From: a phage
Direction: 5' to 3' (one strand)
DNA: 64,000 nucleotides
Sequence record: PQ826431.1
Part shown: piece by piece, positions 6,781 through 63,490 of the stretch
Position numbering within the stretch: position 1 is the first letter of the stretch
Layout of the letters: each line of letters starts with the position of its first letter
The notes under the pieces: generated by a model
Seen by the model: only the letters and a program-made list of their open reading frames with translations
Told to the model about the DNA's origin: nothing
Database searches by the model: none
Translations under genes and position numbers: made by a program

Positions 6781-6784
6781 TATC

Positions 6785-7129
6785 ATGCAAGAGAGTAAAA
6801 ATGTTCCGTTGAGTAGCTTACGTCTAATGAAGTTTTACAAAGCTTGGCTTGCTGGTGAGGTAGAAGGTCACACAACGAGTGGTTTGTGCATATGTTTGAT
6901 TAAGTATGTAGAGGGAACATACCCTGATGAACTGTTACCTCGTCTACAACAGGAGATGAAATCACAGTTTATTAGTGCAGGATTGGATTACAATTTCCCG
7001 TTTAATGAAGGTGGTTATGAGGAATACACCTTCGAACATAAAAAACATATTTGCCATAAAAACAAACATCGTATACAATGGGTGCTAGATAGAATTCAGG
7101 ATTACGAAGGAGAGAAAAATGACAAATAA
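6785..7129 (+). CDS. paralog family member 1 (GLCxCL / WVKDR motifs), 114 aa
   Basis: ORF track; RBS GAGAGGAGATTATC; shares FYKAW, TSGLC, GLDYNFPFN, QWV-DRI motifs with six other ORFs. Confidence 0.65.
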   Translation: MQESKNVPLSSLRLMKFYKAWLAGEVEGHTTSGLCICLIKYVEGTYPDELLPRLQQEMKSQFISAGLDYNFPFNEGGYEEYTFEHKKHICHKNKHRIQWVLDRIQDYEGEKNDK

Positions 7130-7487
7130 TATTCCGTTGAGTAGTGCAGCATTGCTTCGCTTCTATAAAGCATGGATTGCCAACTATCCTGCAATGAATC
7201 GCACAACGAGTGGCTTATGTGGTTGTCTGGTAGATTATGTAGATGATTTTGTTGGTGAGACAACTAGAGAAGAAGATAGAAGATGGCGGGATAGTTTGTT
7301 AGACCGTTTGAAATATGAAATGAGGAAACAATTTACATGTGCAGGGTTGGACTACAATCTTCCGTTCAATGCAGATTGCATGGATTACCTTTCAGAGTGT
7401 ATAAACTTGGCGTGTCATACCAACACGTTACGTCTTCAATGGGTGAAAGATCGCATTGAAGATGCAAATAATGCTTGCATTGAATAA
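7119..7487 (+). CDS. paralog family member 2, 122 aa
   Basis: ORF track; motifs FYKAW, TSGLCGCL, GLDYNLPFN, LQWVKDRI. Confidence 0.65.
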   Translation: MTNNIPLSSAALLRFYKAWIANYPAMNRTTSGLCGCLVDYVDDFVGETTREEDRRWRDSLLDRLKYEMRKQFTCAGLDYNLPFNADCMDYLSECINLACHTNTLRLQWVKDRIEDANNACIE

Positions 7488-7546
7488 AAATGTCTGTATG
7501 ATAGTTTGCATACCGCGCATAACAGATAGCCAATGAGGAGATTGAA

Positions 7547-7813
7547 ATGTCAAATATGAAAAATACCTTTTACTCTGAAATTTGTGATCGATACGAAGCC
7601 ATTCTTCTTCAAGTAGAAGATCCAGATCAAGGTAAAACAGGTGCAAATCATTTGTTGTGGATGCTCAGTGAACTGCAAGATGATAGCAACCAAATGTCAG
7701 AAACCAAACGTCACCGTTGGTTGGGCTACATTCAGGGCGTAATGGTTATGAAAAATCTCATTAACGTTGAAGATGAACGTAATGCCACCCGCCCTATTTT
7801 TAAAGGAGCGTAA
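7547..7813 (+). CDS. hypothetical protein (88 aa)
   Basis: ORF track; RBS GAGGAGATTGAA. Confidence 0.55.
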   Translation: MSNMKNTFYSEICDRYEAILLQVEDPDQGKTGANHLLWMLSELQDDSNQMSETKRHRWLGYIQGVMVMKNLINVEDERNATRPIFKGA

Positions 7814-7814
7814 C

Positions 7815-8015
7815 ATGAAAATTCGTATTGAGAATGATGGTGGTTATAAAGGATTGGCACATGCAGAATTTCCACTTGTGTTGGAAGCTACAGTGGAATA
7901 CAGTGGGCTTGCTCATGTGCGATTCTCGAAGATGATGGAAGTGCAGGAGTGGTTTTGGGACGAGATAGATGCACGAGAAGGGGGAAGATTATGTTTTCTT
8001 TCCTCACGAATATGA
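7815..8015 (+). CDS. hypothetical protein (66 aa)
   Basis: track ORF trimmed to ATG after RBS AAAGGAGCG. Confidence 0.5.
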   Translation: MKIRIENDGGYKGLAHAEFPLVLEATVEYSGLAHVRFSKMMEVQEWFWDEIDAREGGRLCFLSSRI

Positions 8016-8040
8016 AATTGTCTATTAAAGGTTGTGTGCA

Positions 8041-8280
8041 ATGATCACACCACAACAGAACGAAGCAGCAATGGATCTTCTTGATAGTTTGTATTTCGAT
8101 AATTGGTACTCCGAATGTGAATGGATGAATATGCAAACTCTGAAAGAGAAAACAGAAGCGTTGATTACAGTAGATCAATTTCTTGCAGAGACGGAAAGAA
8201 TGAACTATGATATGGCATCTCGCGCACGACGCGTTTCCATTTTCAATAAAATGTTAGCATTATGGGGAGGTAGAAAATGA
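8041..8280 (+). CDS. hypothetical protein (79 aa)
   Basis: ORF track (TTG 8032) trimmed to first ATG. Confidence 0.5.
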   Translation: MITPQQNEAAMDLLDSLYFDNWYSECEWMNMQTLKEKTEALITVDQFLAETERMNYDMASRARRVSIFNKMLALWGGRK

Positions 8281-8738
8281 GACAATTCACTATACTGGCA
8301 GCTTATGTGCAATGTGTTCACGATTATGTTAGTGCTCATACAGGTTTGCTGGAAGTTACCAGTAAAATTGAAGGTAATATGGGTACTGTCTGTGTGCAAC
8401 ATACTTTATCCAATGTGCCGTTTAAAGTGTTCACTGTTGTAGCTGCCGATTACAATCGTGTAGATGTGCGTTTCTTGGATCATAATTTTCGTAACGCACT
8501 AGATAATATCGAAGATTATCTTCCCGTGAAACCTTTGTCATTTCCACCGAGTCGTGCAAATAATGTAGTGACAAACCTTAATGAAAGGAATGTGGCTATG
8601 CACAAAAAAGTCCGTCAACTGAAAACGCTGATGGAAATGCAAGAAGAGATTGAAAAAGAACTGAAAGAAGATTTTGGTATGCTTACAAAAGACGCTTTGA
8701 AATGGTATGATGAACTAGGAGGAGAAAGTTATGAATAA
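8277..8738 (+). CDS. hypothetical protein (153 aa)
   Basis: ORF track; RBS GGGAGGTAGAAA; overlaps upstream stop. Confidence 0.6.
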   Translation: MRQFTILAAYVQCVHDYVSAHTGLLEVTSKIEGNMGTVCVQHTLSNVPFKVFTVVAADYNRVDVRFLDHNFRNALDNIEDYLPVKPLSFPPSRANNVVTNLNERNVAMHKKVRQLKTLMEMQEEIEKELKEDFGMLTKDALKWYDELGGESYE

Positions 8739-8925
8739 AGGAACTACTGTATATTTAGTAACAAAGAATACCCCAGGCTGGAGCCAATGCAGCACTGTCC
8801 CTTACAAGATCTGTGCAACATTAGAACTAGCACAACGTGCAGAAGAAGAAGTGGATGCTATGCGATACAGCTACGGTGAAATCATTCCTTTTACTCTTGA
8901 ACAAGAAGGAGCACATCGTGTTTAA
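8731..8925 (+). CDS. hypothetical protein (64 aa)
   Basis: ORF track; RBS GGAGGAGAAAG. Confidence 0.5.
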   Translation: MNKGTTVYLVTKNTPGWSQCSTVPYKICATLELAQRAEEEVDAMRYSYGEIIPFTLEQEGAHRV

Positions 8926-9373
8926 AGTAGGGTTTACTTATAAATTCAAAAGCGTTGCTGACCAAGGAGCTATGGCAACACAGGACAAAGCAAATATTGC
9001 TGTTTGCCAAGCAATTGGAAACGAAGTTTTCAAAGTTATGAATACAGATGATAAGTATGGTCATGTTCTTGAGTTTTATATCAATGGTACCCTCTATACA
9101 GCAGGTGTTACCCCAGGGTTTAATTCGTATACTTATTTGATTGATAACGAAGAATTTAAATATTTTGAAGAAGCAAAGGAGGAAACAATGGGTAAAGCAG
9201 AACCACAATGGCATGTTGTGATCGTAGGATCAGAGTGTGTAGATGTTTGTTCTAGTTTTGAAAAAGCTTCTGAAGTCGCTACAAAAGCTAAGAAGGATTA
9301 TCCGTCGAAGACGGTTGAGATTTACGCTCGTGTTGCAGTAGCAAACGCCACAATCACTATTGATAAGGAGTAA
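8918..9373 (+). CDS. hypothetical protein (151 aa); C-terminal domain paralogous to 9379-9834
   Basis: GTG start 6 nt after AAGAAGGAG; track ORF 8837-9373 starts upstream without RBS. Confidence 0.5.
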   Translation: MFKVGFTYKFKSVADQGAMATQDKANIAVCQAIGNEVFKVMNTDDKYGHVLEFYINGTLYTAGVTPGFNSYTYLIDNEEFKYFEEAKEETMGKAEPQWHVVIVGSECVDVCSSFEKASEVATKAKKDYPSKTVEIYARVAVANATITIDKE

Positions 9374-9378
9374 AGCCA

Positions 9379-9834
9379 ATGTTCAAAGAAGGTCATGTCT
9401 ACCGTTTCCAGGATGAAGATTATATGCAATTATATTCTACCTTTGATAACAGTATGGCTGCTATCATTGGAGAGAATTTTTTCGAGGTGTTGAGCACTGA
9501 TGCAAATGGTAATATCTTGTCAATTGTTGTGATAGGGAGAGACGGTATTATCACTGCTAGTGATGGGGATCGTTACATAATCAATTCTGCTCATATAGAT
9601 TATTTTGTTGACGGTGGTATTCGTGGTGGTCGTGGAAAACCCCAAGAAGAACCTGTTGATACAACAAAAGAAGAGTGGTATGTTGTAATGACTGATGACA
9701 CCTGTATTTCTGGATTTGAAAGTTATGAAGAAGCTTTGAAAGAAGCAGCAGAGCATAAAATGGCTAATCCTACAGAAGAGGTTGAAGTTTATAAACGTTT
9801 GGTTGTTGCTACCATCGGCGTATCTTTTGTTTAA
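9379..9834 (+). CDS. hypothetical protein (151 aa)
   Basis: ORF track; RBS AAGGAG; C-terminus W-x-VV...VE-Y-R similar to preceding gene. Confidence 0.6.
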   Translation: MFKEGHVYRFQDEDYMQLYSTFDNSMAAIIGENFFEVLSTDANGNILSIVVIGRDGIITASDGDRYIINSAHIDYFVDGGIRGGRGKPQEEPVDTTKEEWYVVMTDDTCISGFESYEEALKEAAEHKMANPTEEVEVYKRLVVATIGVSFV

Positions 9835-9846
9835 AAGGGGAATGTT

Positions 9847-10284
9847 ATGTTTAAAGTTAATGCTGTTTACTGTTTCAAAAGTAAAGCTGCATGTGAAGCT
9901 TTCTCTATGATCTCTGATGAAAATTTCAAAATGGCAGCTTTGATTGAAGGGTCTTGTTTCCGCGTCGAAGATGTTAGTGAATCAGGGTCTGTTTGCTCAT
10001 TGACTTTATTGGACAGCGGGGATATTATTGAAGCTGGACAGTATCCGTTCAGGAGTTGGGAGATATTGTTAGCTCGCGGAGAGCGTAACTTTTTTATGTG
10101 CGTGTCTGCGGGGGAAATTGTGAAAGAAACTAAGGATGTTTCTGTTTACAATTCTGAATTTATAAGTTATAGTGAGTATCAACATCTGGAAGGCATTGTT
10201 GGTCACTTGTTATCTCTGATTGACATTGAATGTGACTTGCCTGAATCATTGAAAGAAGAGTTGAAAGCATTAGATCTGCTGTAA
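9847..10284 (+). CDS. hypothetical protein (145 aa)
   Basis: ORF track; RBS AAAGGGGAATG. Confidence 0.6.
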   Translation: MFKVNAVYCFKSKAACEAFSMISDENFKMAALIEGSCFRVEDVSESGSVCSLTLLDSGDIIEAGQYPFRSWEILLARGERNFFMCVSAGEIVKETKDVSVYNSEFISYSEYQHLEGIVGHLLSLIDIECDLPESLKEELKALDLL

Positions 10285-10311
10285 TGTTTCACACAACGAA
10301 AGGAGAATAAG

Positions 10312-10611
10312 ATGAATCTGACTGAACAGTTACGCCGTATTGCAAAAGAAGCTTCCTTCAACTTCCCTGTTGAAGAAGTGATCGAGACATGTTTCGCTGA
10401 AGCACGAGCGGGAAACTCTTCAAGAAATTTCACGCCATCTGATTTTGGTTTGGATAATTCTCCTACTCATCCAGGGGAAATCTACAATCAGGTGAAGTGG
10501 ATGGATGAAGCAGTAGCAATTCTTCGTGAGCGTGGGCTTATTGTTTATAAAGAAATGGATCTGAACGGAGCATATGAGTGGATCACTATTGATTGGTCCG
10601 AGGTGAAATGA
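10312..10611 (+). CDS. hypothetical protein (99 aa)
   Basis: ORF track; RBS AAAGGAGAATAAG. Confidence 0.6.
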   Translation: MNLTEQLRRIAKEASFNFPVEEVIETCFAEARAGNSSRNFTPSDFGLDNSPTHPGEIYNQVKWMDEAVAILRERGLIVYKEMDLNGAYEWITIDWSEVK

Positions 10612-10844
10612 TGAAAGGTAACAAGATGAAAGTTAATCAAGTGCCGAGCGCATACACTTTGTGGCTTGCGCGAGCATTACACCAGACGATCAAAAACCCT
10701 AAGAAGCCAATGAAGAGTGGGAAGAAGTTTATGTCTAAGGGCAAAACAACCTTTGGCTTCACTCGTATGTCTGTTAAGATGAAAAGGCTGGGGTACAAGC
10801 CAAACTACGCTCGTTACCCTTCTGAATACAACTGGTTTGACTAA
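10608..10844 (+). CDS. small highly basic protein (78 aa)
   Basis: ATG overlapping upstream stop, RBS GAGGTG; K/R-rich. Confidence 0.55.
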   Translation: MMKGNKMKVNQVPSAYTLWLARALHQTIKNPKKPMKSGKKFMSKGKTTFGFTRMSVKMKRLGYKPNYARYPSEYNWFD

Positions 10845-10857
10845 AAAGGAGAAAGCA

Positions 10858-11331
10858 ATGGCAGGTTTGAAACTGGAGATGTTGACAAAGCAAGAATTTG
10901 TTCCCGAACACGGTGAAACTTACATTGCTTTCTTGATTAGTGATTTTTATGGGGATTTAGAGTATGTTGAACTGGAGTGTGAGTTTCACTACCAAATGAT
11001 CGACGCAGAAACTGGTTATTGTCTGGGTACGTCTGCGGTGTATAATGGTGATAATGGCATTCCTTTTCATACCCCAATGAGGTACGAAGCGAAAAACCGA
11101 TTCAAACTTCTCACAGAAGAAGAAAAAGAGACATATAAATATCACGAAGAGGAGGATCAACGCTTCTGGTGGGAGAAAACTTGGTTCCTGTCTGATCGCC
11201 GTAATCTTCAGATTCACCCAGAAGAACTGGATGAAATGTCTATTGGCATTATGAAGAAGAAAGACTTCATGTTCCAGGTGAGAGAAGCTAATAAGTTCCG
11301 TATTGCAATTAAAGAGGAGAACAAAACATGA
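10858..11331 (+). CDS. hypothetical protein (157 aa)
   Basis: track ORF trimmed to ATG after RBS AAAAAGGAGAAAGCA. Confidence 0.6.
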   Translation: MAGLKLEMLTKQEFVPEHGETYIAFLISDFYGDLEYVELECEFHYQMIDAETGYCLGTSAVYNGDNGIPFHTPMRYEAKNRFKLLTEEEKETYKYHEEEDQRFWWEKTWFLSDRRNLQIHPEELDEMSIGIMKKKDFMFQVREANKFRIAIKEENKT

Positions 11332-11612
11332 AAACATCTATTCGCGTAAAACATGATCCAAACAGCAGTTACCCATACGCGGATGTTGAACGTCATGAAG
11401 GAGACTATTACACCATAAAACGTAAAGTCCCAACTGATACAGGGTTTAACTTTGATGTTATTGCGCTGGATGATCAAGGTGTTGATAATCTGGTGAATGC
11501 ATTACTCGCATTGAAGGAAGTGCGATATGAAAATCAGACTAAAGGTAAAGTGGCTTTCGATTCTTGTGATCGTTTAGCCGAAGAGATTGCCGAATGGCGT
11601 GACACTAACTAA
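11328..11612 (+). CDS. hypothetical protein (94 aa)
   Basis: ORF track; RBS AAAGAGGAGAAC. Confidence 0.6.
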   Translation: MKTSIRVKHDPNSSYPYADVERHEGDYYTIKRKVPTDTGFNFDVIALDDQGVDNLVNALLALKEVRYENQTKGKVAFDSCDRLAEEIAEWRDTN

Positions 11613-11627
11613 AACAGGAGAAAGATT

Positions 11628-11804
11628 ATGGCTACTTTTCAACAATTGAAAGATGTTTCACGTTTAGTAAGAAAAATCCGAGAAGCAGACGCTGCTGTGC
11701 GGAATGCATTAACGCCAGCAGAGCGTGAAGATCTTGAAGAGGAGGTGAAAACAGCCGAGAATGCTTTTGCTGTGTATCTTTCAACACTGTATACAGGAGG
11801 TTAA
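11628..11804 (+). CDS. hypothetical protein (58 aa)
   Basis: ATG after RBS CAGGAGAAAG; fills gap; not in track. Confidence 0.45.
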   Translation: MATFQQLKDVSRLVRKIREADAAVRNALTPAEREDLEEEVKTAENAFAVYLSTLYTGG

Positions 11805-12119
11805 ATGTCAGAAGAACTTAAAGAATTTTATCAGGCATATCATAACTGGCTATTAGCTGGTGCTCCAGATAATAATCCTTTCTGGCATGATAAAGGATTA
11901 TGTAGTTGCCTCTACCTTTGGACTGGTGGTTACGATGATCTAAATTATGAAATGCAAATGCAATTTCGAGAAGCAGGGTTGTCTGAAGAATACCCGTTTG
12001 ATGACGGAGACTGGTTTAAATATGATTTTGCACAAAGAAACGGGCTATTGCATTTGAATGCTGCCCGTATAAAATGGGTAAAAGATCATGCTACACAGGA
12101 GGATGTGCAATGCCAATAG
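11805..12119 (+). CDS. paralog family member 3, 104 aa
   Basis: ORF track; motifs FYQAYHNWL, GLCSCL, EEYPFDDG, IKWVKDH. Confidence 0.65.
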   Translation: MSEELKEFYQAYHNWLLAGAPDNNPFWHDKGLCSCLYLWTGGYDDLNYEMQMQFREAGLSEEYPFDDGDWFKYDFAQRNGLLHLNAARIKWVKDHATQEDVQCQ

Positions 12120-12310
12120 TGTTTAGTTTCTTGATAATTGTTATGGTTGTTCTTTTCGCGGCATGGCTTTGGGATTTTGACCCAGGAGCAGCGCAGCAAA
12201 GAGCTACAGACTGGAAAGAACAATGTATTGTGCTCAAACATGAACGAAATGCGGAGAAATTTCTTGACCTAGAGTGTGATCGCCTTGTAAGATACAAGCA
12301 AGATAAATAA
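12110..12310 (+). CDS. small membrane protein (66 aa)
   Basis: track ORF trimmed to ATG after RBS CAGGAGGATG; one predicted TM helix. Confidence 0.5.
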   Translation: MPIVFSFLIIVMVVLFAAWLWDFDPGAAQQRATDWKEQCIVLKHERNAEKFLDLECDRLVRYKQDK

Positions 12311-12324
12311 CCTTGAGGTGCAAA

Positions 12325-12513
12325 ATGGTAATTGAGATTAAACTTGAATATGCTGGGGCTGTTGCTCTGATCGCACAAATGCTTGGAGCAAAGATTGAAG
12401 AAGTGTATATCAATGCCTGGAGCGTAGAGATTGATGTTCCTATGGACAACATTGCTAATCGCTTGCTGGTGGCAGAGTGTGAACGCACCAACATAATCTA
12501 CAAAGGAGCATAA
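12325..12513 (+). CDS. hypothetical protein (62 aa)
   Basis: ATG after RBS GAGGTG. Confidence 0.5.
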   Translation: MVIEIKLEYAGAVALIAQMLGAKIEEVYINAWSVEIDVPMDNIANRLLVAECERTNIIYKGA

Positions 12514-12514
12514 T

Positions 12515-12736
12515 ATGAAAATTAGAGTTTGCGATGTATTGGGTTATGTTGGTTTTGAGAATGTTCAGATTCCTTTTGTTGTTGAAGCACATCTTGTTAG
12601 CGATGATATGACAACATTCTTTGTTACGATAGAAGAAATGTCCAAAGTTGAGGGATGGGAGTGGTTTGAAGAAGATGTTTGGGAAGGTTGTGATTACGTA
12701 TTTTTCTCTGATGAAGTGAATGTTCTTTCGGAGTAG
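12515..12736 (+). CDS. hypothetical acidic protein (73 aa)
   Basis: ORF track; RBS AAAGGAGCATAAT. Confidence 0.55.
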   Translation: MKIRVCDVLGYVGFENVQIPFVVEAHLVSDDMTTFFVTIEEMSKVEGWEWFEEDVWEGCDYVFFSDEVNVLSE

Positions 12737-12738
12737 GT

Positions 12739-12945
12739 ATGTCTTGTTTTACAAAAGCAGTGTCCATATGTAAGAAACAGTATGAAAGTGATTACGGAAT
12801 ATTTAATATTCCAGTGGATCATACGGAGTATTGTTCATGTGGTGGCAGGATGAAGAAAACAGTGATTTATGCGGATAGTGGAGACGAACTTGTTCCGGTT
12901 ATGGTTTGCAAAGCTTGTCATTCTGTTAAAACATTAAAAGCGTAA
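12739..12945 (+). CDS. small zinc-ribbon-like protein (68 aa)
   Basis: ORF track; Cys pairs CSCGG and CKAC. Confidence 0.55.
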   Translation: MSCFTKAVSICKKQYESDYGIFNIPVDHTEYCSCGGRMKKTVIYADSGDELVPVMVCKACHSVKTLKA

Positions 12946-13040
12946 GGAGTCGGGACACCCGACGATTGGAGCTAAAAATTTTGCGTACAACCCTTTCCGC
13001 CCAACAGGGGCGCGTCGGGTAAATAAAGAGGAGAGTTTAT

Positions 13041-13439
13041 ATGAAAAAGATCATTGTAGGTTTATTGTTACTCATTGCATCACTTGGAACAGCAAATGCG
13101 TCTCAAGTTTATGAGTGTGTGTCAGAGGTGGTTGTTAAAAATCTGAAAGGTGAAGTTATTTCTGGTCCTAAGAAAATGGCTTCTGTTGTCATTAACAAAG
13201 ATAACTCCTTTATCCTTAAAAATTCAGGTGGTGCTTTGATGAGTGGCATTCTGCAATACACAGGAGAAAAAAGTAAAGATGGTAGTGCTATGTACGGTTC
13301 ACAACAGTTTATTGGCACTACTGAAGTAGTAATGATGCGCACAGAGTATCGAGACACTTTGGCTTGGTTTGCATTTCTAAAAAATGATAAAACAATAACG
13401 AATGTTCTTACTCTAGAAGCTGATTGTACGCAACGATAA
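13041..13439 (+). CDS. secreted/periplasmic protein with N-terminal signal peptide (132 aa)
   Basis: ORF track; MKKIIVGLLLLIASLGTANA signal-like N-terminus; RBS AAAGAGGAGAG. Confidence 0.6.
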   Translation: MKKIIVGLLLLIASLGTANASQVYECVSEVVVKNLKGEVISGPKKMASVVINKDNSFILKNSGGALMSGILQYTGEKSKDGSAMYGSQQFIGTTEVVMMRTEYRDTLAWFAFLKNDKTITNVLTLEADCTQR

Positions 13440-13448
13440 GGGGGATTT

Positions 13449-13895
13449 ATGACTAAAATGAGACATTACGCTGTAAACTGCAACGATGCTTGGCGTTTGT
13501 GTCCTGATGATCCGACAGAAGGCACATTTGTAAGATATGAGGATTATAAAGAGTTATCGGATGCTGTGATCGCATTGTTAACTGATATCCGTTCACGTTA
13601 TCCAGGACAAGATTTCACTTGCCCTCACATCAAACTTCTTGCTTGTCTGGTAGAAGGTGAGAAAGAAGTGGAAGATGGCTTCAAGCGTGTAGAGTATCAA
13701 GGTGAAACTTTAGATGTTCCTGAATTTGTTAATTATATTGCAACAGACTCGGATGGTGATCGTTATGGTTACAGCCATAAGCCAGAGATTCCTGATTGGA
13801 TTCCCGCTTGGCGTATTTCCGTTAGTACCGGAGACTATATCTTCCTTGGCGTAGGTAGTAGTAAGGATTGGCGTTTCTCTTTGACAGAGGTTTAA
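13449..13895 (+). CDS. hypothetical protein (148 aa)
   Basis: ORF track; RBS AAGGGGGATTT. Confidence 0.6.
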   Translation: MTKMRHYAVNCNDAWRLCPDDPTEGTFVRYEDYKELSDAVIALLTDIRSRYPGQDFTCPHIKLLACLVEGEKEVEDGFKRVEYQGETLDVPEFVNYIATDSDGDRYGYSHKPEIPDWIPAWRISVSTGDYIFLGVGSSKDWRFSLTEV

Positions 13896-13899
13896 TAAT

Positions 13900-14163
13900 A
13901 TGAAAGAGACATTGCCAGCAGCATACCGTTTGAATGATGAACGTATTTGGGAGTGGACCGACGTTTCTTGTTTTTACCCTGAAATAGTTCAATATTGGCG
14001 AGCAAAAGGGTGTGTTGTAGTTATCAACCCTTGTGGACCAGTAGATGAAGATTGTTTGTATCTCAATGGAAAGTGGCACAGTTATTGTCGCTGGCCTTTT
14101 GAGTGGATGTGTAAAGAAGATCTCCCAGAGGGTTGGGAGTATCCGAAAGCAAATAGGAGATAA
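13900..14163 (+). CDS. hypothetical protein (87 aa)
   Basis: ORF track. Confidence 0.55.
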   Translation: MKETLPAAYRLNDERIWEWTDVSCFYPEIVQYWRAKGCVVVINPCGPVDEDCLYLNGKWHSYCRWPFEWMCKEDLPEGWEYPKANRR

Positions 14164-14164
14164 T

Positions 14165-14527
14165 ATGTCTAAAGATTTTGTTGAAGTGTTTGTCAAAGAC
14201 GAAGAAACTGGTTTAGGCACAGGTTTCATTTGCGAAGAAACTTTTAAGCGTGAACAAGAAAAAGCTATTCTTATGCACCGTTATGATCATGCATTAGAAC
14301 AATGGAAAAATGCAGAACAAAAATGCAAAAACCTTTACGCAGAAAATAGAAAACTACAAGATCAAATGGAGTTGTTAGCTATCAGTTTACGATCTCTCAT
14401 TTTGGCTGTAGAAGATGGTTTTAAAAATCCAGATGGTTTTCCTGTGAGCGATATTGAACATGATTTGTATCTTGCTCGTGGTGCTTACTTTTATGTTAAA
14501 CAGAAGCCTGTAGAAGGAGAGAAATGA
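14165..14527 (+). CDS. coiled-coil protein (120 aa)
   Basis: track ORF trimmed to ATG after RBS AATAGGAGATAAT. Confidence 0.55.
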   Translation: MSKDFVEVFVKDEETGLGTGFICEETFKREQEKAILMHRYDHALEQWKNAEQKCKNLYAENRKLQDQMELLAISLRSLILAVEDGFKNPDGFPVSDIEHDLYLARGAYFYVKQKPVEGEK

Positions 14528-14724
14528 TGGAAGAAAAACTGGAACGTATTATCGAGTTAGCCATGTCTATTGGCTACGACGATTGTTTTCTCCAAACTAT
14601 TGGAGAAACACAGGACGATTACGACTCTTGGGTGAAAGAGTTGGAAGAACTCAAAACTTCCTTGATTGCTGACTTTGCTGAAGCAGAGGATAAAGCAGAT
14701 CGTTACAACTATCTGTGTCGATAA
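14524..14724 (+). CDS. hypothetical acidic protein (66 aa)
   Basis: ORF track; RBS GAAGGAGAG. Confidence 0.55.
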   Translation: MMEEKLERIIELAMSIGYDDCFLQTIGETQDDYDSWVKELEELKTSLIADFAEAEDKADRYNYLCR

Positions 14725-14727
14725 GCC

Positions 14728-14756
14728 TTGACATTTATTTTATGTATGGTATACAT
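14728..14756 (+). promoter_or_regulatory. internal promoter (TTGACA-17-ATACAT)
   Basis: -35 consensus; intergenic. Confidence 0.4.
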
Positions 14757-14786
14757 ACATTATCAACGTGAGAAAGGTGGTGTAAT

Positions 14787-15059
14787 ATGAATAAAGATCG
14801 GTTTCTTTCTTTAGTCGCGGAAGCGCCTTTTGATGTTCTTGGGGTGAGATTATGGAAAGACAGAAACTATGGGTTAGATGTTCAAACATATTCTCTTTGG
14901 TTGGTTGGGGAGCACAGCTTAGATGAAAGCTTGTGCATGGGTAGGGATTCTCGTTCCCTTTGTTTAAAGTTTAGAAGCTTAGAACGCGCAAACAAAGAGC
15001 AAGAAAAACTAACGAGGTGGCTAAATGAAAACAAGCGCAGGGTTGATGGAGTTTTATAA
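14787..15059 (+). CDS. hypothetical protein (90 aa)
   Basis: ORF track; RBS GAAAGGTGG. Confidence 0.55.
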   Translation: MNKDRFLSLVAEAPFDVLGVRLWKDRNYGLDVQTYSLWLVGEHSLDESLCMGRDSRSLCLKFRSLERANKEQEKLTRWLNENKRRVDGVL

Positions 15060-15351
15060 AATTTATCTAGCATGGATTGATGTTGGTGCTCCTGAAGGTG
15101 AACCTTTTCGGCGAGATTGCGGTTTGTGTGCCAACTTGTTCGATTATGTGCACGCAGATGGCTACAATCTCCTTATAACAACCTTGTCAGACGAAATGCA
15201 CTCACAGTTTTACTACAAAGGGTTGAGTCAAGAACTCCCTTTCAATGAGAACTACGATGCATATGTCTTAGAATCAGATGCAGAGGTATGTCACCTGAAC
15301 GTGGACAGGATTAATTGGGTAAGAGATCGTATTGCAGAGGAGGATGAATAA
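15025..15351 (+). CDS. paralog family member 4, 108 aa
   Basis: ORF track; motifs FYKIYLAWI, GLCANL, ELPFNEN, INWVRDRI. Confidence 0.65.
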   Translation: MKTSAGLMEFYKIYLAWIDVGAPEGEPFRRDCGLCANLFDYVHADGYNLLITTLSDEMHSQFYYKGLSQELPFNENYDAYVLESDAEVCHLNVDRINWVRDRIAEEDE

Positions 15352-15578
15352 TGTCGGATTATAACTGGTATGAACTTGAGGCCGTTTGTCAGTTTTACGA
15401 CTCAATAGTTCTGCGTGATCCAATCTGTCAAGAATTAAGTCGCCGTGCAAGTGCATTGGCAATCAATGTTAAAGTGCACGATTGGAACGCAGATCTGGAA
15501 AAAGAATTGGAATTCCTTTTGGAAACAACCCGTGTCTTCCATAAAGTGTTCCCTGAATGGTTTGAGATGGAGGAATAA
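15351..15578 (+). CDS. hypothetical protein (75 aa)
   Basis: ORF track; RBS GAGGAGG; ATG overlaps upstream stop. Confidence 0.55.
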   Translation: MSDYNWYELEAVCQFYDSIVLRDPICQELSRRASALAINVKVHDWNADLEKELEFLLETTRVFHKVFPEWFEMEE

Positions 15579-15580
15579 GC

Positions 15581-15793
15581 ATGTGGATTGTCCGTCTTAA
15601 GTATGATGGCAAGTTTCCGTGGGAGAAAGATGTTTGTGCCTGTGATTCAGCAGCACATGCCAAAGCAGCGGGTCAGGCAGTAGTTGACATGTATAACAAC
15701 ACCCCTTTTGATCCAGAAATGGCAGGTGTTACAATGAGCATGTTCACTTACTATTCTTTTGAGGTTTACTATCACGAAGGAGAGTGGAAATGA
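15581..15793 (+). CDS. hypothetical protein (70 aa)
   Basis: ORF track; RBS GGAGGAATAAGC. Confidence 0.55.
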   Translation: MWIVRLKYDGKFPWEKDVCACDSAAHAKAAGQAVVDMYNNTPFDPEMAGVTMSMFTYYSFEVYYHEGEWK

Positions 15794-16110
15794 GCGAAGA
15801 ACTATTAACATTTTACCGCACGTATTTGGCATGGTTGGAAGCTGGTGCTCCTGAAGGTGAACCGTTCACCCGTTGCACAGGTTTGTGCACGAACCTCTAT
15901 GATTTTTACGACATAGGAGAAAGCGAACGATACGAACCTGTACTGGATGAAATGCATGAGCAGTTCTACCTCAAAGGTTTGGTTATGGTGTTGCCTTTCA
16001 ACAGTAATTTTGGAAAGTACACCTTAGAAGCGGAAAAAAGCCGTTGTCATTTGAATGTGGATCGTGTGAACTGGGTAAAAGAACGTGTAGCAGAAGAAAT
16101 AATTGGTTGA
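15790..16110 (+). CDS. paralog family member 5, 106 aa
   Basis: motifs FYRTYLAWL, GLCTNL, VLPFNSN, VNWVKERV. Confidence 0.65.
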   Translation: MSEELLTFYRTYLAWLEAGAPEGEPFTRCTGLCTNLYDFYDIGESERYEPVLDEMHEQFYLKGLVMVLPFNSNFGKYTLEAEKSRCHLNVDRVNWVKERVAEEIIG

Positions 16111-16135
16111 CAGAAGGATCTGTCTTTGTCATAAT
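16107..16135 (+). promoter_or_regulatory. promoter (TTGACA-17-CATAAT)
   Basis: good -35/-10 consensus upstream of 16165 ORF. Confidence 0.5.
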
Positions 16136-16164
16136 CATCTCATCGAAACAGAGAGGAGAAAATC

Positions 16165-16578
16165 ATGAAAAAGTTTATTTGCACCCGTTCCACTAACAGT
16201 GATATCCTTGTAGGTAAGGTTATCAAAGGAGACCTCTTCCATGCAAACGGTAAGAAATATATTCTGCTGAAAGATTCTTTCAACGGGGAATATCCGCGCT
16301 GCACTTTCTTCAATTACAACACTCCATTTGCTTTAGAAGGAGATTCTTGGGACTGGGCTGAACTCAATCCTTGTTGTGAGGAAGAAGAATCTATGTTCTT
16401 AGGTTTAAACGTTTACCGTGTAGATTACACCATGTGCGGAGCGGAACATTCTGTTCGCGTAGAAGCCGAATCCAAACTACAAGCACCTTTCAAGGCAGGA
16501 TTGACTTTGGGTCATTGTTTGGCAAACATTGAAGATGTTGTGATCCAAAGGGTTGTTTTAGAGAAAGAGGCTATTTGA
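16165..16578 (+). CDS. hypothetical protein (137 aa)
   Basis: ORF track; RBS AGAGAGGAGAAAATC. Confidence 0.6.
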   Translation: MKKFICTRSTNSDILVGKVIKGDLFHANGKKYILLKDSFNGEYPRCTFFNYNTPFALEGDSWDWAELNPCCEEEESMFLGLNVYRVDYTMCGAEHSVRVEAESKLQAPFKAGLTLGHCLANIEDVVIQRVVLEKEAI

Positions 16579-16631
16579 CAGAAGACGGTACAATATTTAA
16601 AATATAAAGATTAACCACAAAGGAGATAGAT

Positions 16632-16931
16632 ATGCAAGTTGAAGACCTGATCCACATTCTGAATAAAGCTAAAGAGAAGGGTGCTATCAAAGACTGGAAA
16701 CGTGAAACAAGTGAAGATTTATCTTATTGTTGCCGAGAGTTTTACATCGAAGGTATTGCTGACGATCATTATACTATCGAATGGTATATCAACTTAATGA
16801 CTCTTAAGCACGGTTCGTTTGAGGTTTGGTTTGATGACATTGATGTAAATGGTTTTCATCCTGGCTATAAAATCGCTATGCAGTTATCTTATCGTAGAGA
16901 AGTTGTAGCACATTTGGGTTTACATAACTAA
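16632..16931 (+). CDS. hypothetical protein (99 aa)
   Basis: ORF track; RBS AAAGGAGATAGAT. Confidence 0.6.
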   Translation: MQVEDLIHILNKAKEKGAIKDWKRETSEDLSYCCREFYIEGIADDHYTIEWYINLMTLKHGSFEVWFDDIDVNGFHPGYKIAMQLSYRREVVAHLGLHN

Positions 16932-16941
16932 GGAGAAAAGA

Positions 16942-17265
16942 ATGCAAGCAGTTGTTAACGAAGCTATTATGAACTTATCCTTCTTGTTAGCTGGTTTAGG
17001 AGGTGTTCTCATAGGCTTGGCTCTTATCTGGTGTATTCGTCGATTAATCGGGTACCGACAAAAAGGTGTTTCATGTTTTGTATCTTACAATTTTACAACT
17101 GCTTACAGTAATGAGGTTGGATCTGGCAATGCTCAAGCATTTTTACCAACATATCCTCCTACGGTGGAAGATATTCGAAACTTGGAAGTAGAACTTATGG
17201 GACTAGGTGATAACTATACATCTCTCGTTATTCAAAATATTTTTCGACTAAAACAGGAGTCGTGA
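16942..17265 (+). CDS. membrane protein (107 aa)
   Basis: ORF track; one TM helix; RBS AAGGAGAAAAGA. Confidence 0.55.
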   Translation: MQAVVNEAIMNLSFLLAGLGGVLIGLALIWCIRRLIGYRQKGVSCFVSYNFTTAYSNEVGSGNAQAFLPTYPPTVEDIRNLEVELMGLGDNYTSLVIQNIFRLKQES

Positions 17266-17478
17266 ATGAAGGCACATTACCCTCATCCCTTTGATCCTAA
17301 AAACAAAGCCGTAATTCTTCGTCAGTGGCAACGGGTTTGTCGTACTAAATGTCCAATCAATAGCCCACACAATGTAGACAAGGACTATCTTGGGACATTT
17401 GTTGAATACACTTACATAGACAAAAACAAGCGTAAACAACATGTCGAGGAATACTGCTTAAGAGTAGAATGGCTGTAA
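17266..17478 (+). CDS. hypothetical protein (70 aa)
   Basis: ORF track; RBS CAGGAGTCG. Confidence 0.5.
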   Translation: MKAHYPHPFDPKNKAVILRQWQRVCRTKCPINSPHNVDKDYLGTFVEYTYIDKNKRKQHVEEYCLRVEWL

Positions 17479-17490
17479 ATAATAAATACC

Positions 17491-17519
17491 TTGACAAGTG
17501 TTTATTCGTTTTGTAAAGT
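17491..17519 (+). promoter_or_regulatory. promoter (TTGACA-17-TAAAGT)
   Basis: upstream of recombinase gene. Confidence 0.45.
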
Positions 17520-17548
17520 GAGAATACAGTAATAGTTTAGGAGTGGTT

Positions 17549-18220
17549 ATGAAAAAGTTTGTTGTTTACAGTCGTCTTTCTAAACAGAAAAAAGGTGAGG
17601 CACAATATGGTATGGAGAGCCAAGAGAACGATATCCGTTACTTCTTAGACTCTGTGCCTGATGCTGAAGTTATTGGTCAATTTTCTGAATACTATTCGGG
17701 TAAGGGCGATTGGAAGCAACGTAAGGAACTGGTCAAAGCGGTTGAAATGTGTAAAGCTACCGGAGCAACTTTATTGGTAGCTAAAGTTGATCGCTTGGGT
17801 CGTAACAACGCCTCCGTAGCAACTCTTCTGGAGATGATCGATGTTAAGATAGCCATCATGCCAGACGCAGATAAAATGGTTATACAGCTTCTGTCTGTTC
17901 TGGCTGAACAAGAAGTTAGAGGTATTGCTGATCGTATTAAAAAGGGTCTTGCTGTAGCAAAAAGTAAAGGTGTTTTATTAGGCAGTGCTAATCCTAAAAC
18001 TGCCGCTGCACGTAGAAAAGGAAAAATGGAATACAATTCTGTTAAAGCAGACGCTTTTGCAGAGACATTCCGTGAACGCTTGGAGATCCTTAGAGATTTA
18101 AATACACCTTACAAAACTATTGCTGAAAAATTCAATAGTAAGAAAATAGCAACAGCACGTGGTGGTAAATGGGATGCTAAAACTGTTTCTCGTTTGTGTG
18201 CCAGACTGAACATTAAATAG
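17549..18220 (+). CDS. small serine recombinase (resolvase/invertase family), 223 aa
   Basis: N-terminal Y-S-R-L-S catalytic serine motif, LVAKVDRLGRN motif, GIADRIKKGLAVAKSKG, C-terminal HTH; RBS AGGAG. Confidence 0.7.
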   Translation: MKKFVVYSRLSKQKKGEAQYGMESQENDIRYFLDSVPDAEVIGQFSEYYSGKGDWKQRKELVKAVEMCKATGATLLVAKVDRLGRNNASVATLLEMIDVKIAIMPDADKMVIQLLSVLAEQEVRGIADRIKKGLAVAKSKGVLLGSANPKTAAARRKGKMEYNSVKADAFAETFRERLEILRDLNTPYKTIAEKFNSKKIATARGGKWDAKTVSRLCARLNIK

Positions 18221-18228
18221 GAGAGGAT

Positions 18229-18651
18229 ATGAAACAAGAAAATGAATCTGTAGATCACTTAATCATGCTGTCAGCCCTTTTTGCCGGATGGGACGTATTT
18301 TTTGAAAATTTGTTCAATTCTGCTACAGATGGTTCCGATTTTATGCGCCAGTTTAAACGACGAACTGTTGAGGACTATACCTTCTATTCAGGTCTGATTG
18401 AAAAAGGTTACGAAGATACAAATACAACACTCACCATTAAAGTTTTAGATGTGATGTTTAGTGTTATAGATGCTATCGACGAAAGTCTTCCGATCCTAGA
18501 CAATTGTAATACGAAAGCCTATGTTTACAAAATAGCTTGTGCTTATGTGTCTGCAAACAGTTGTCTTCTTTCCACCCAGATTGCCGTGAACAATCTTGCC
18601 AACTTGTTTGATGAAGGAGAAACTTTTTATGACAATCGATTTGAAGTGTAA
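18229..18651 (+). CDS. hypothetical protein (140 aa)
   Basis: ORF track; RBS TAGGAGAGG. Confidence 0.6.
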   Translation: MKQENESVDHLIMLSALFAGWDVFFENLFNSATDGSDFMRQFKRRTVEDYTFYSGLIEKGYEDTNTTLTIKVLDVMFSVIDAIDESLPILDNCNTKAYVYKIACAYVSANSCLLSTQIAVNNLANLFDEGETFYDNRFEV

Positions 18652-18994
18652 GAGGATTCTTTTAGATTTCTATAATAATTGGTTAGAACACCTCCGTCTC
18701 TTTCCAAGAGAAAGTGGTTACGCTGATGTTGGCTTATGCCGAGGTCTGCGTATGTATATAAGTGATGAATTTCGGGCAGAGCATTCTTTAGCATATTCTG
18801 TTTATGGTATGCAATTAGCCAGTTTTGAAAACGCTGGCTTAGATACAACTTTCCCATTTAACACAGCAAAATCTTTTGAGCAAGAGTGTAAGGAAAAACG
18901 TTGTATGTTTAATGAAAAACGTGTACAGTGGGTTAAGGATCGAGTTAAACAACTGGAACAAGAGTTGGATTTCTTCTATGATGAGGCAGAATAA
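18629..18994 (+). CDS. paralog family member 6, 121 aa
   Basis: track ORF trimmed to ATG after RBS AAGGAG; motifs FYNNWLEHL, GLCRGL, TFPFN, VQWVKDRV. Confidence 0.65.
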   Translation: MTIDLKCKRILLDFYNNWLEHLRLFPRESGYADVGLCRGLRMYISDEFRAEHSLAYSVYGMQLASFENAGLDTTFPFNTAKSFEQECKEKRCMFNEKRVQWVKDRVKQLEQELDFFYDEAE

Positions 18995-19266
18995 TGGATA
19001 GACAAACCTTAAAAACAATGGCAGATGCTACTAATTCCCCGTACTTTGAAAAAGTAAGTAAGTTGGTAGCTCAAGCCGCAGAGGAAGGATATTATAACAT
19101 AAACATCCACAACCCAAGTCTTATACTAGAAATGCCAAATGATAAGAAGATACAAGAAAGTATCTGCGAAGGTATTGTTAGTTACTGGCGCGAGCGTGGG
19201 TGTGGTGCAAACATGGCTTTAGACAGTGCAAACATTGTAAGATATATAAATATTTCTTGGGGGTGA
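18994..19266 (+). CDS. hypothetical protein (90 aa)
   Basis: ORF track. Confidence 0.55.
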   Translation: MDRQTLKTMADATNSPYFEKVSKLVAQAAEEGYYNINIHNPSLILEMPNDKKIQESICEGIVSYWRERGCGANMALDSANIVRYINISWG

Positions 19267-19270
19267 TTTT

Positions 19271-19882
19271 ATGATTCAATGCACTCATATCCAAATTACT
19301 TGGAGAGATGAACTTTACCATTTGGGACAATTTACTGTAGGGGAAACATACCCTATCATTAAACATAATCCTAACATCGCAAACTTTGACAGGATGGTTC
19401 TTGTTGAGGACGATCTAGGTCAAACTTATTCTTTAGATCTAAAATATCCGTTTTCTTACGGCTACGATTGGATCGTTACTTTTGAAGACGCGGAGGAAAA
19501 TAAAACAATGAACGAAAAAAATTCTTGGTATTATCGTTGTGAACTGCCGCCAGTAGGTGAAAAGGTTATCTTTGTTCCTGATTTGGAAAGATATTCTTGG
19601 GACAGTTCTTATTCTGTTCCTAAAGAAGGAACAGAAGTTGAAGTTATTGCACATCGCACAACTTCGCATGGTAACGATGTAGCAGTTGTTTTCTGGGATG
19701 ATGAAGGCGCTGCTTGTGCAGGTGGCTTTGTTGCAGGTAATTTTGAACCCCTGCCAGATCCTTTGAAGGAGGCAATTTTAGGCGTAGCTTCTTTTGGACT
19801 CTCTTACACATCTGCACAAGAGATCGTAGAAGGTATTTTAAACGGTACCGTTCCAAACGAAATTTTTAAACAGATTAAATAA
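19271..19882 (+). CDS. hypothetical protein (203 aa)
   Basis: ORF track; RBS GGGGGTGATTTT. Confidence 0.6.
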   Translation: MIQCTHIQITWRDELYHLGQFTVGETYPIIKHNPNIANFDRMVLVEDDLGQTYSLDLKYPFSYGYDWIVTFEDAEENKTMNEKNSWYYRCELPPVGEKVIFVPDLERYSWDSSYSVPKEGTEVEVIAHRTTSHGNDVAVVFWDDEGAACAGGFVAGNFEPLPDPLKEAILGVASFGLSYTSAQEIVEGILNGTVPNEIFKQIK

Positions 19883-19887
19883 TAGTT

Positions 19888-19915
19888 GCACCCCGTTCTG
19901 CGGGGTGTTATTGTA
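19888..19915 (+). terminator. weak terminator-like hairpin GCACCCCG-ttct-CGGGGTG + T-rich
   Basis: hairpin plus TTATTG. Confidence 0.35.
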
Positions 19916-19933
19916 TATGTAAAGGAGGCGCTA

Positions 19934-20272
19934 ATGTATTACACTGAAGACTACATACTGTATAACTTTTTTAAAAGCTGGTTGAAATGGGCTGAACAAG
20001 CTCCTGTCGGAGATTGTGTTTTTCCTTGGGATTCTCGTCAAGGTTTGTGTCGTTGTTTGGAAGATTGGCTTATAACCACAAACTACAATTCAGAAACTAA
20101 GAAATCTACATCAAATCGATTAAAAATGTTGTTTGAAGAAGATGGTTTAGATCCAATTTATCCTTTCGGTGAGGAAAGTTTCCACAATGGTCTTTTCCTT
20201 GGCACTCAACATTATGATAAAGATCGTGTAGATTGGGTAAAAGAAAAGGTAGCACAGTATGAATGGGGTTAA
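19934..20272 (+). CDS. paralog family member 7, 112 aa
   Basis: track ORF trimmed to ATG after RBS AAAGGAGG; motifs FKSWLKWA, GLCRCL, IYPFGEES, VDWVKEKV. Confidence 0.65.
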   Translation: MYYTEDYILYNFFKSWLKWAEQAPVGDCVFPWDSRQGLCRCLEDWLITTNYNSETKKSTSNRLKMLFEEDGLDPIYPFGEESFHNGLFLGTQHYDKDRVDWVKEKVAQYEWG

Positions 20273-20462
20273 GAATTATCACCGCTGGTTAGAAAGCTAT
20301 CTTAAGAAATGTGAACTTGGTGTTCCAGGTTATACTTACGACACGGACGAGATCCTTGATGAAATGGAAGTTTGGTTTAAAGAGCCTCGTGAACTATTGG
20401 AAAACATTCTAATGGCTTGGGATGGTACGGCACAAAGCATTGAAGGAGGTAGAAATGAGTAA
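20259..20462 (+). CDS. hypothetical protein (67 aa)
   Basis: ORF track. Confidence 0.5.
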   Translation: MNGVKNYHRWLESYLKKCELGVPGYTYDTDEILDEMEVWFKEPRELLENILMAWDGTAQSIEGGRNE

Positions 20463-20589
20463 GAAATTGTTTAATATTCGTGAGAACCGTGATGGATCGT
20501 TCTCTGTAGTCAATGAGTTTAACGTTTCGGTTGGGACTTTTATTACTAAACGTCAAGCAGAACAAGTAAGAGATACTTTAAACAAGTAA
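20455..20589 (+). CDS. hypothetical protein (44 aa)
   Basis: ATG after RBS GAAGGAGGTAGAA; not in track. Confidence 0.4.
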   Translation: MSKKLFNIRENRDGSFSVVNEFNVSVGTFITKRQAEQVRDTLNK

Positions 20590-20606
20590 ATTTTTAAGGG
20601 GGACTT

Positions 20607-21026
20607 ATGTTAGGTAAGATCAAAGCCTTTTTCAAACGTATTATCGAAGGAAGTCCAACAGAAGGTGCATTAGGAAGATCCCTAACAGGAGAACCACTTG
20701 CCATAATTTCTATCAGTCGGCATGGTGGATATTCCATTCGACAAACACCTTTAGGTATAAAAGGTAGTATGCTTTCTTGGACAATATCTCAAGTTGGTGA
20801 TAACAGGCTTGCAGCTATAGCGTTACTTCGTGGGGAGTATGACTACTGTTTATCAGCATCTTCTAAAAAGCACCTCATAGAGCACATTAGAGACAGAGTA
20901 GAAAGAGAAGGCGGATACTTCTTCGAAACTAAGAGAAACGAACAAGGAACTCTTGACTTCACTAAGGTTTACTGGGACAATCATACTCGTCAAACTGTTG
21001 AACAACTTCTGGAGGAAAGATGTTAA
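20607..21026 (+). CDS. hypothetical protein (139 aa)
   Basis: ORF track; RBS AAGGGGGACTT. Confidence 0.6.
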   Translation: MLGKIKAFFKRIIEGSPTEGALGRSLTGEPLAIISISRHGGYSIRQTPLGIKGSMLSWTISQVGDNRLAAIALLRGEYDYCLSASSKKHLIEHIRDRVEREGGYFFETKRNEQGTLDFTKVYWDNHTRQTVEQLLEERC

Positions 21027-24664: not shown

Positions 24665-24708
24665 GCTAGAACCCACCTAAATCGAACAGAGACGCTCTAA
24701 AATAGAAA

Positions 24709-24737
24709 AGGCACCCACTTGGGTGCCTTTGTTTTAT
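24709..24737. terminator. bidirectional terminator at convergence of plus and minus gene blocks
   Basis: hairpin GGCACCCA-ctt-GGGTGCC flanked by A-run and T-run. Confidence 0.65.
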
Positions 24738-61677: not shown

Positions 61678-61679
61678 AC

Positions 61680-61979: not shown

Positions 61980-61988
61980 TATAAGTAT

Positions 61989-62079: not shown

Positions 62080-62084
62080 GATTA

Positions 62085-63488: not shown

Positions 63489-63490
63489 AT

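Follow-up and report, generated by a model that had tools for sequence, protein, structure and literature searches.

Why would a phage keep seven diverged copies of one small gene within a single block of genes, and what might their products do? This question is raised by a 64,000-nucleotide stretch of phage DNA (sequence record PQ826431.1; the whole stretch is called the window here), in which seven plus-strand open reading frames (ORFs) starting at positions 6785, 7119, 11805, 15025, 15790, 18629 and 19934 form a family of paralogues. They are referred to in the following either by these start positions or, in the same order, as copies 1 to 7. The phage itself is a Phapecoctavirus, that is, a phAPEC8-like Escherichia coli myovirus. 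The best megablast match of window positions 6,000-21,000 is Escherichia phage ECO340P1, which covers 98% of the query at 98.6% identity; ETEC-TG, Mt1B1_P17 and others come next among the 127 phage records matched. ETEC-TG and the other relatives fetched belong to the Stephanstirmvirinae, genus Phapecoctavirus, comprising phAPEC8-like E. coli myoviruses with genomes of ~150 kb. According to the analysis described here, the seven genes are members of a widespread family of phage proteins, to which the early protein gp3 of phage N4 can also be assigned on the basis of profile matches. The best reading of the results, which is given about an even chance of being correct, is that of an early-expressed accessory family interacting with the host, in which a fixed scaffold and a fixed site would be combined with variable loops.

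Seven colinear paralogues

All seven ORFs of the original prediction are present on the plus strand with the starts given above. Each of them begins with an ATG located behind a GGAG/AGGAG Shine-Dalgarno (SD) sequence, and the same seven starts are annotated as coding sequences in the near-identical phage ETEC-TG; 'hypothetical protein' is the annotation of the family genes in every related record that was fetched. The encoded proteins have lengths of 104-122 amino acids (aa) and are all acidic, with isoelectric points (pI) of 4.4-6.2 and net charges of -2 to -13 at pH 7. Upon alignment using MAFFT, the motifs of the seven copies proved to be colinear, as had been supposed, with 14 invariant columns (L14, F17, G33, L34, C35, L38, F62, G66, L67, P72, F73, R96, W99 and V100 in the numbering of copy 6785). 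Pairwise sequence identities range from 23 to 53% and pairwise BLASTP E-values from 4e-5 to 1e-39. Moreover, a profile hidden Markov model (HMM) built from the seven copies and applied to the 665 six-frame ORFs of the window retrieved exactly these seven (E = 1.6e-36 to 2.8e-47), with the next-best ORF of the window at E = 0.14. Based on these HMM and BLASTP E-values, the similarity among the copies is far beyond chance.

The ordered set of motifs proposed originally is correct in outline, but was slightly over-stated in detail. While its G-L-C-x-x-L element and the P-F pair are truly invariant, the Q of the central Q-F motif is present in only five of the seven copies, being replaced by S in 18629 and by L in 19934. 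Likewise, the residue following P-F can be N, D or G instead of only N or D, and the C-terminal motif as found reads R-(I/V/L)-x-W-V-(K/R/L)-(D/E)-(R/H/K).

Family membership and distribution

All seven copies match phrog_2510, a group of unknown function (best E = 4.5e-31), and the genome record of phage nepoznato tags its five copies as VOG7392 (pVOG). Judged by these matches, the family corresponds to PHROG 2510 / pVOG VOG7392, which are automatic clusters without description and with no assigned function. The earlier statement that no function could be recognized is borne out as well, since no Pfam, NCBIfam, PADLOC or PDB match was obtained for the family. Scans of the seven copies against Pfam, NCBIfam and PADLOC gave no significant match (the best Pfam hit, of a single member, had E = 0.014), a Pfam scan of ten longer homologues returned nothing usable, and the precomputed Pfam assignments were empty for all homologues retrieved. 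Similarly, the names returned by a homology search with a 140-sequence alignment were all 'hypothetical protein', and sequence-profile searches against the PDB yielded a best E-value of 0.36 using the 7-sequence alignment and 0 matches using the 140-sequence alignment.

The family is large. An exhaustive profile search of 1.84 billion cluster representatives identified 1,944 proteins with E-values of 1e-3 or below, 1,039 of which reach 1e-10 or below, and the family size amounts to ~1,900 clusters at 50% identity, nearly all of them from phages of Proteobacteria. Using tblastn, members were detected in 258 phage records, including Phapecoctavirus, phi92-like, rV5-like, N4-like, T7-like and T1-like phages as well as phages of Rhizobium, Achromobacter, Ralstonia, Delftia and Pseudomonas; the only plasmid found to carry a member is a phage-plasmid. 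Self-fusions consisting of two or three family domains make up 18 of the 179 homologous proteins retrieved. In addition, multi-copy arrays recur in the family, since contigs outside Phapecoctavirus also carry copies in tandem, namely four in the N4-like contig L012 (5579-7141) and two in contig L011 (5953-6568).

Temperate members, in turn, are rare (~20 of 5,426 E. coli genomes) and are located in the early-right accessory region of lambdoid prophages. In these proteins of 159 aa, the family domain is fused to a C-terminal module of ~50 aa (phrog_26213/phrog_660), as encoded at 5968-6447 of L015 and at 5001-5477 of L016. By itself, the C-terminal module occurs in 1,333 of the 5,426 E. coli genomes, where the proteins carrying it are often annotated as ead/Ea22-like. 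The idea that the family is widespread in E. coli prophages was rejected, because this 1,333-genome signal stems from the Ea22-like C-terminal module and not from the family domain. Lambdoid ead/Ea22-like proteins resemble the rare temperate members in sharing this module and in their location in early accessory regions, but they differ from the window copies, which do not contain the module, and the shared part is not the family domain. The temperate fusions illustrate how domains are shuffled among the early accessory genes of prophages.

Selection and descent of the copies

Between the paralogues, synonymous divergence (dS) is saturated and, thus, a test based on the ratio of nonsynonymous to synonymous divergence (dN/dS) is impossible at this level. 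Among orthologues of the family copies, dN/dS values of 0.02-0.47 with a median of 0.15 were obtained. As 44 neighbouring genes gave the same median (interquartile range 0.10-0.22; Mann-Whitney p = 0.80 versus the family), the diversifying selection invoked by the original prediction is not shown by these data. Copy 15025, with a dN/dS of 0.47, has the highest value of the 50 measurable genes in the block. Of its 108 sites 30 are variable, none of which falls on one of the 26 family-conserved positions (hypergeometric P = 5e-5), and the variable residues cluster at positions 5-6, 19-32, 44-52, 60-70 and 86-88. In these segments, which were picked post hoc, dN/dS reaches ~0.79 compared to 0.12 elsewhere in the gene, which is still below 1. 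Hence, a fixed scaffold is kept under purifying selection, while the loops of one copy, 15025, are relaxed or changing fast.

Copy number is variable and ranges from five to nine among seven Phapecoctavirus genomes: five copies are present in nepoznato, six each in ZCKP1 and phAPEC8_ev052, seven each in the window, ETEC-TG and ESCO13, and nine in phiWec179. Altogether, the family genes of these genomes fall into 14 orthogroups. The descent of the copies was followed in a bootstrapped neighbour-joining (NJ) tree of 140 family members (200 replicates), and the repeated duplication assumed originally could not be upheld, as none of the 200 bootstraps placed the seven window copies in one monophyletic group. 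Local sister pairs were limited to two, 6785 with 7119 (143/200) and 15025 with 15790 (100/200). The three other copies group with members from other phages: 18629 is sister to the metagenomic protein P0015 (199/200), 11805 groups, rather weakly, with a cluster holding the member of the N4-like Erwinia phage Ea9-2 and not with its window paralogues, and 19934 groups weakly with a cluster holding ORF5 of the T7-like Ralstonia phage RSB1. Because of this tree, the array is not regarded as the result of one recent burst, and therefore at least five old lineages as well as two local duplications have to be assumed.

N4 gp3 and the position in early regions

In N4-like and T7-like phages, members of the family are found in the early regions, where genes for anti-defence and host takeover, the two functions considered in the original prediction, usually reside. 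Chief among them is the N4 early protein gp3 (YP_950481), whose assignment to the family is based on its matches to the seven-copy HMM (2.6e-18), to an HMM of 203 family domains (5.7e-23) and to phrog_2510 (7.8e-24); direct comparison with copy 15025 gave a BLASTP E-value of 9e-12 at 29% identity. N4 gp3 has 104 aa and displays all motifs (F-x-x-x-Y-x-x-W-L, G-L-C, L-P-F-N, C-H-L-N and R-I-N-W). In contrast to the seven copies of the window phage, however, N4 has only a single one. The gp3 gene is the third from the N4 left end and lies between gp1/gp2 and the RNAPII genes gp15/16. Transcription of the N4 early genes is performed by an injected virion RNA polymerase (RNAP), and gp1 and gp2 are cofactors of N4 RNAPII (PMC4496689), whereas the block in the window contains sigma-70-like promoters.

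Members in other phages are placed as follows. Like N4 gp3, both Ea9-2 gp07 and RSB1 ORF5 have phrog_2510 as their best PHROG match. The Ea9-2 member occupies an equivalent place upstream of RNAP1/2, the members in the metagenomic N4-like contigs L009 and L012 are located downstream of Phage_N4_Gp2 and, in case of L009, upstream of an RNA_pol gene, and RSB1 ORF5 lies at 2.7 kb with a kinase-like gene just downstream. In these five cases (N4, Ea9-2, RSB1, L009 and L012), the early-region position is given by annotation, and many podovirus matches fall within the first 1-8 kb of their records.

The fact that N4 gp3 adjoins the RNAPII cofactors gp1 and gp2 would also suit a role inside the phage, for instance in phage transcription, replication or genome entry, where the protein could serve as cofactor or regulator. 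Strong purifying selection on copies 11805 and 18629 (dN/dS of 0.03-0.04) and the retention of at least five orthogroups in six of the seven Phapecoctavirus genomes point in the same direction. The phages hosting the family, however, differ in their transcription strategies, ranging from host-RNAP-dependent myoviruses via N4-like, T7-like and T1-like phages to rare lambdoid prophages. There is no single phage partner common to these groups, there are no recurring neighbours, and copies are gained and lost freely. A phage-internal role is judged unlikely.

For the window phage, early expression may be inferred because of its gene organization, its promoters and the ends of related sequence records. 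The family genes are part of a co-directional plus-strand run of small genes extending from ~6.7 kb to ~24.7 kb, and intergenic gaps in this run contain near-consensus sigma-70 promoters at 16,107, 16,575 and 17,491; no phage RNA-polymerase gene was seen in the examined part of this phage. The GenBank records of several close relatives have their ends at window positions ~6143, 6172 and 6406, just upstream of the block. Terminal repeats in these phages have been addressed elsewhere (PMC12695924), and the record ends between 6143 and 6406 suggest that a physical genome end or a terminal-repeat boundary adjoins the block.

Predicted fold and conserved residues

Structure prediction using AlphaFold2 (AF2) was performed for copy 15025 as the only window copy modelled and, based on a 33-sequence alignment, gave a model with a pLDDT of 94 and a pTM of 0.86. 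Five helices are predicted, comprising residues 5-19, 34-45, 48-64, 77-85 and 93-107. A search of the BFVD viral models resulted in 16 matches at E <= 1e-3 with TM scores of 0.8-0.9; those carrying a name are all listed as 'uncharacterized protein' from lytic phages, and several are without a name. When the same model was compared with the PDB using Foldseek, no match to a solved structure was found (best E = 1.6). As modelled, the family fold is a confident five-helix bundle of ~100 aa that has no PDB neighbour. AF2 modelling of a natural two-domain member, P0044, yielded a pTM of 0.57; here, domain 1 had no alignment depth, with the single-domain rows all placed on domain 2.

Conservation was assessed across 203 family domains. 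Cys35 is present in 202, Pro72 in all 203 and Phe73 in 202 of these, while Arg95 is found in 200 of 201. Next come Gly33 (197), Asn92 (183, plus 14 with Asp), Glu57 (180) and Gln61 (167), and position 90 is occupied by His, Tyr or Trp in 184 of the 203 domains (His 77%). In the alignment of 140 sequences, full invariance is restricted to the columns of Cys35, Pro72, Phe73 and Arg95. In the model of copy 15025, the conserved polar residues are placed at helix starts and in loops, with Cys35 at the start of the helix formed by residues 34-45.

Such a pattern could be that of a small thiol enzyme, in which Cys35 would serve as nucleophile assisted by Arg95, Asn92 and His90, and whose substrate, modified or cleaved early in infection, would be a host protein, nucleotide or metabolite. 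In line with this, Cys35 has essentially no Ala, Ser or Gly replacement, position 92 is Asn or Asp in 197 of 203 domains, Cys35 and Arg95 are both invariant in the 140-sequence alignment, and the orthologues are under strong purifying selection. Furthermore, Cys35 would sit at the N-terminus of helix 2, and the N-terminus of a helix is a common position for activated thiols. On the whole, an enzyme of this kind is nevertheless considered quite unlikely. Its most familiar form, a papain-like thiol hydrolase with a Cys-His-Asn triad, was rejected separately, as His90 is present in only 77% of the domains, with Tyr, Trp and Met as substitutes (Met in 18629). The alpha/beta fold of papain is also not what was found, the model of copy 15025 being all-alpha and its structural matches including no peptidase.

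Alternatively, the aromatic residue at position 90, Arg95, Asn92 and Glu57/Gln61 could form the pocket of a ligand 'sponge' sequestering, for example, a nucleotide-derived immune signal, with the paralogues tuned differently. The prevalence of His, Tyr or Trp beside an invariant Arg and a conserved Asn would be compatible with this, as would the small size and helical nature of the proteins, the self-fusions of two or three domains, which suggest oligomers, and the multiple diverged copies per genome. At the same time, the structural search returned no PDB match, a negative that should extend to the known helical sponge Acb2, provided that it is contained in the library searched. Known sponges do not feature an invariant Cys, and evidence for co-occurrence with signalling defence systems is lacking. 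This alternative is considered very improbable.

Finally, an Ocr- or ArdA-like DNA mimic with anti-restriction activity is extremely unlikely in view of the modest charge and the missing fold match: although small size, acidity, helical structure and a location in leftmost early regions would fit, the net charge of -2 to -13 falls short of the very high negative charge of a DNA mimic, neither an Ocr nor an ArdA chain is among the structural matches, and conservation concerns Cys, Arg, Asn and aromatic residues instead of arrays of Asp and Glu. T7 Ocr (gp0.3) itself is likewise a small, helical and acidic protein encoded at the first-entering end of a lytic genome (compare the RSB1 member located upstream of a gp0.7-like kinase). 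Yet, it has no sequence or fold similarity to the family, the window copies are far less charged, and the invariant Cys/Arg site of the family is no feature of DNA mimics.

A proposed role in host interaction

In the preferred reading of an early-expressed, host-interacting accessory family, the seven genes are separately maintained paralogues of a large, phage-specific family, each of them predicted to encode an acidic, cytoplasmic five-helix bundle of ~100 aa. Most likely, these accessory proteins are expressed early and are made during takeover of the cell by the phage. They would act by binding a host component, or possibly a ligand, through a site composed of Cys35, Glu57/Gln61, Pro72-Phe73, His/Tyr90, Asn92 and Arg95 at helix ends and in loops, and the variable loops (residues 19-32, 44-52, 60-70 and 86-88) would provide each paralogue with its own specificity. 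Such loop-based specificity could account for the parallel retention of several old lineages and for the different copy numbers of related phages. By analogy, the family may be compared with small early proteins of the T4 AsiA type, which remodel host RNA polymerase; these have ~90-110 aa, are all-helical and early, and act by a protein-binding mechanism as proposed here. The window genes can be filed with the small early accessory gene families of lytic phages.

Several points weigh against this reading. No experimental characterization of any family member was found in the literature. Most copies are under strong purifying selection (dN/dS of 0.03-0.19), which, together with the near-invariant polar residues, looks more like a conserved biochemical function than like the rapidly evolving interfaces of many anti-defence proteins. 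Moreover, the single near-invariant Cys suggests chemistry, such as catalysis or metal binding, more than simple binding. The single site itself is a prediction drawn from the placement of the conserved polar residues along the modelled helices and loops. With respect to expression, the promoter scan is overall not enriched (72 sites versus 59 +/- 8.7 expected), and the timing in Phapecoctavirus itself, being deduced from the features described above, also has to be counted here.

A more far-reaching proposal is that of a new fold whose Cys/Arg/Asn/aromatic site performs a new type of early-infection biochemistry, namely thiol-dependent changes to a conserved host factor or the sequestering of a small-molecule signal, common to N4-like, T7-like and T1-like phages and large myoviruses of Proteobacteria. 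This is deemed rather unlikely. If true, the five to nine paralogues of phAPEC8-like phages would represent a specificity panel.

The existence of the family is not new, since it is already contained in PHROGs and pVOGs and its genes have been deposited in more than 100 genomes. A literature search, however, found no paper that describes the family, names phrog_2510 or VOG7392, or gives N4 gp3 a function, and the C-terminal motif of the family is absent from all sequences in the supplements of a phage accessory-gene screen (bioRxiv 10.1101/2023.04.06.535777). Several aspects appear to be undescribed, namely the connection with N4 gp3, the family's size and its breadth across phage lineages, the confidently predicted fold without PDB neighbour, the near-invariant Cys/Pro-Phe/Arg signature, and the array of five to nine copies from multiple lineages in phAPEC8-like phages. 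A very common family, found in at least 258 sequenced phages from several unrelated lytic lineages including the model phage N4, is without a Pfam entry, a solved structure or a literature of its own. With its early position, a near-invariant Cys/Arg site and several diverged copies retained, the family is a well-defined target in the search for a new host-takeover or counter-defence mechanism. A simple way in would be N4 gp3, which is single-copy in a model phage amenable to genetics, and in therapeutic phAPEC8-like phages the family genes may contribute to host range.

The individual copies

All coordinates of the seven copies include the stop codons. Copy 1 (6785..7129, +; 114 aa, pI 6.2; HMM E = 1.5e-41; phrog_2510 E = 2.8e-26) is the first gene of the plus-strand block, carries the SD sequence GAGAGGAG upstream of its start and overlaps with copy 2 by 11 nt. 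It is present in four of the seven Phapecoctavirus genomes compared, the window included, and its orthologues have a dN/dS of 0.08. Its tandem sister, copy 2 (7119..7487, +; 122 aa, pI 5.0; HMM E = 6.5e-40; dN/dS 0.16), shares 50% identity with copy 1 and contains a longer H2-H3 insertion. Copy 3 (11805..12119, +; 104 aa, pI 4.5; HMM E = 3.3e-40) is the most constrained one, with a dN/dS of 0.03 and one variable residue among six orthologues.

Beside copies 2 and 3, another pair of paralogous genes was observed, the third such group in the block. Genes 7773-8012 and 12515-12733 (both +) share 35% identity (E = 9e-10), both match phrog_15322, and they are located two or three genes 3' of the family copies 7119 and 11805, respectively. 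The arrangement hints at an old segmental duplication that may have taken in a family member.

Copy 4 (15025..15351, +; 108 aa, pI 4.4; HMM E = 2.8e-47) is separated by two small genes from copy 5 (15790..16110, +; 106 aa, pI 4.6; HMM E = 1e-44), to which it is 53% identical; the orthologue of copy 5 is missing in phAPEC8_ev052, nepoznato and ESCO13. Copy 6 (18629..18994, +; 121 aa, pI 5.3; HMM E = 4.8e-40; dN/dS 0.04) has a C-terminal extension and is distinguished by a Met at position 90, where His, Tyr or Trp is found elsewhere. The most divergent member is copy 7 (19934..20272, +; 112 aa, pI 4.7; HMM E = 1.6e-36; dN/dS 0.13) with 23-31% identity to the other copies.

The gene block and its surroundings

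The ~1.5 kb directly upstream of the first family gene (window 5300-6780) are ORF-poor and AT-rich and contain short imperfect repeats only; an Rfam scan of window 5.3-6.8 kb gave no match. At its other end, the plus-strand block meets a minus-strand block at a bidirectional terminator with a perfect 10-bp stem (24,707-24,730). In relatives, a Sir2-like NAD-dependent deacetylase and a DNA (Dcm-like) methyltransferase are annotated as the first genes of the minus-strand block past this terminator.

Within the plus-strand block, a second paralogous family is formed by the tandem genes 8855-9370, 9379-9831 and 9847-10281 (+), all of which match phrog_3710/phrog_622 (unknown function); the first two are 25% identical (E = 3e-12). 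The record of phAPEC8_ev052 labels the counterparts of 8855-10284 as 'goF mRNA metabolism modulator' and 'RNA metabolism moderator', both of which are unverified labels. The block also harbours a serine recombinase gene at 17543-18220 (+), identified by matches to Pfam Resolvase (E = 5e-18) and to phrog_125 'DNA invertase'. Its counterparts in relatives are labelled as invertase, resolvase or, wrongly, as 'methionine ABC transporter ATP-binding protein'. Farther downstream, at 61603-63645 (+), 10-11 tRNA genes are clustered; their identities are Met, Arg, Ser, Asn, Thr, Gly, Gln, Pro, Ile and Met, and one further, weaker Rfam match was obtained at 62304-62388.

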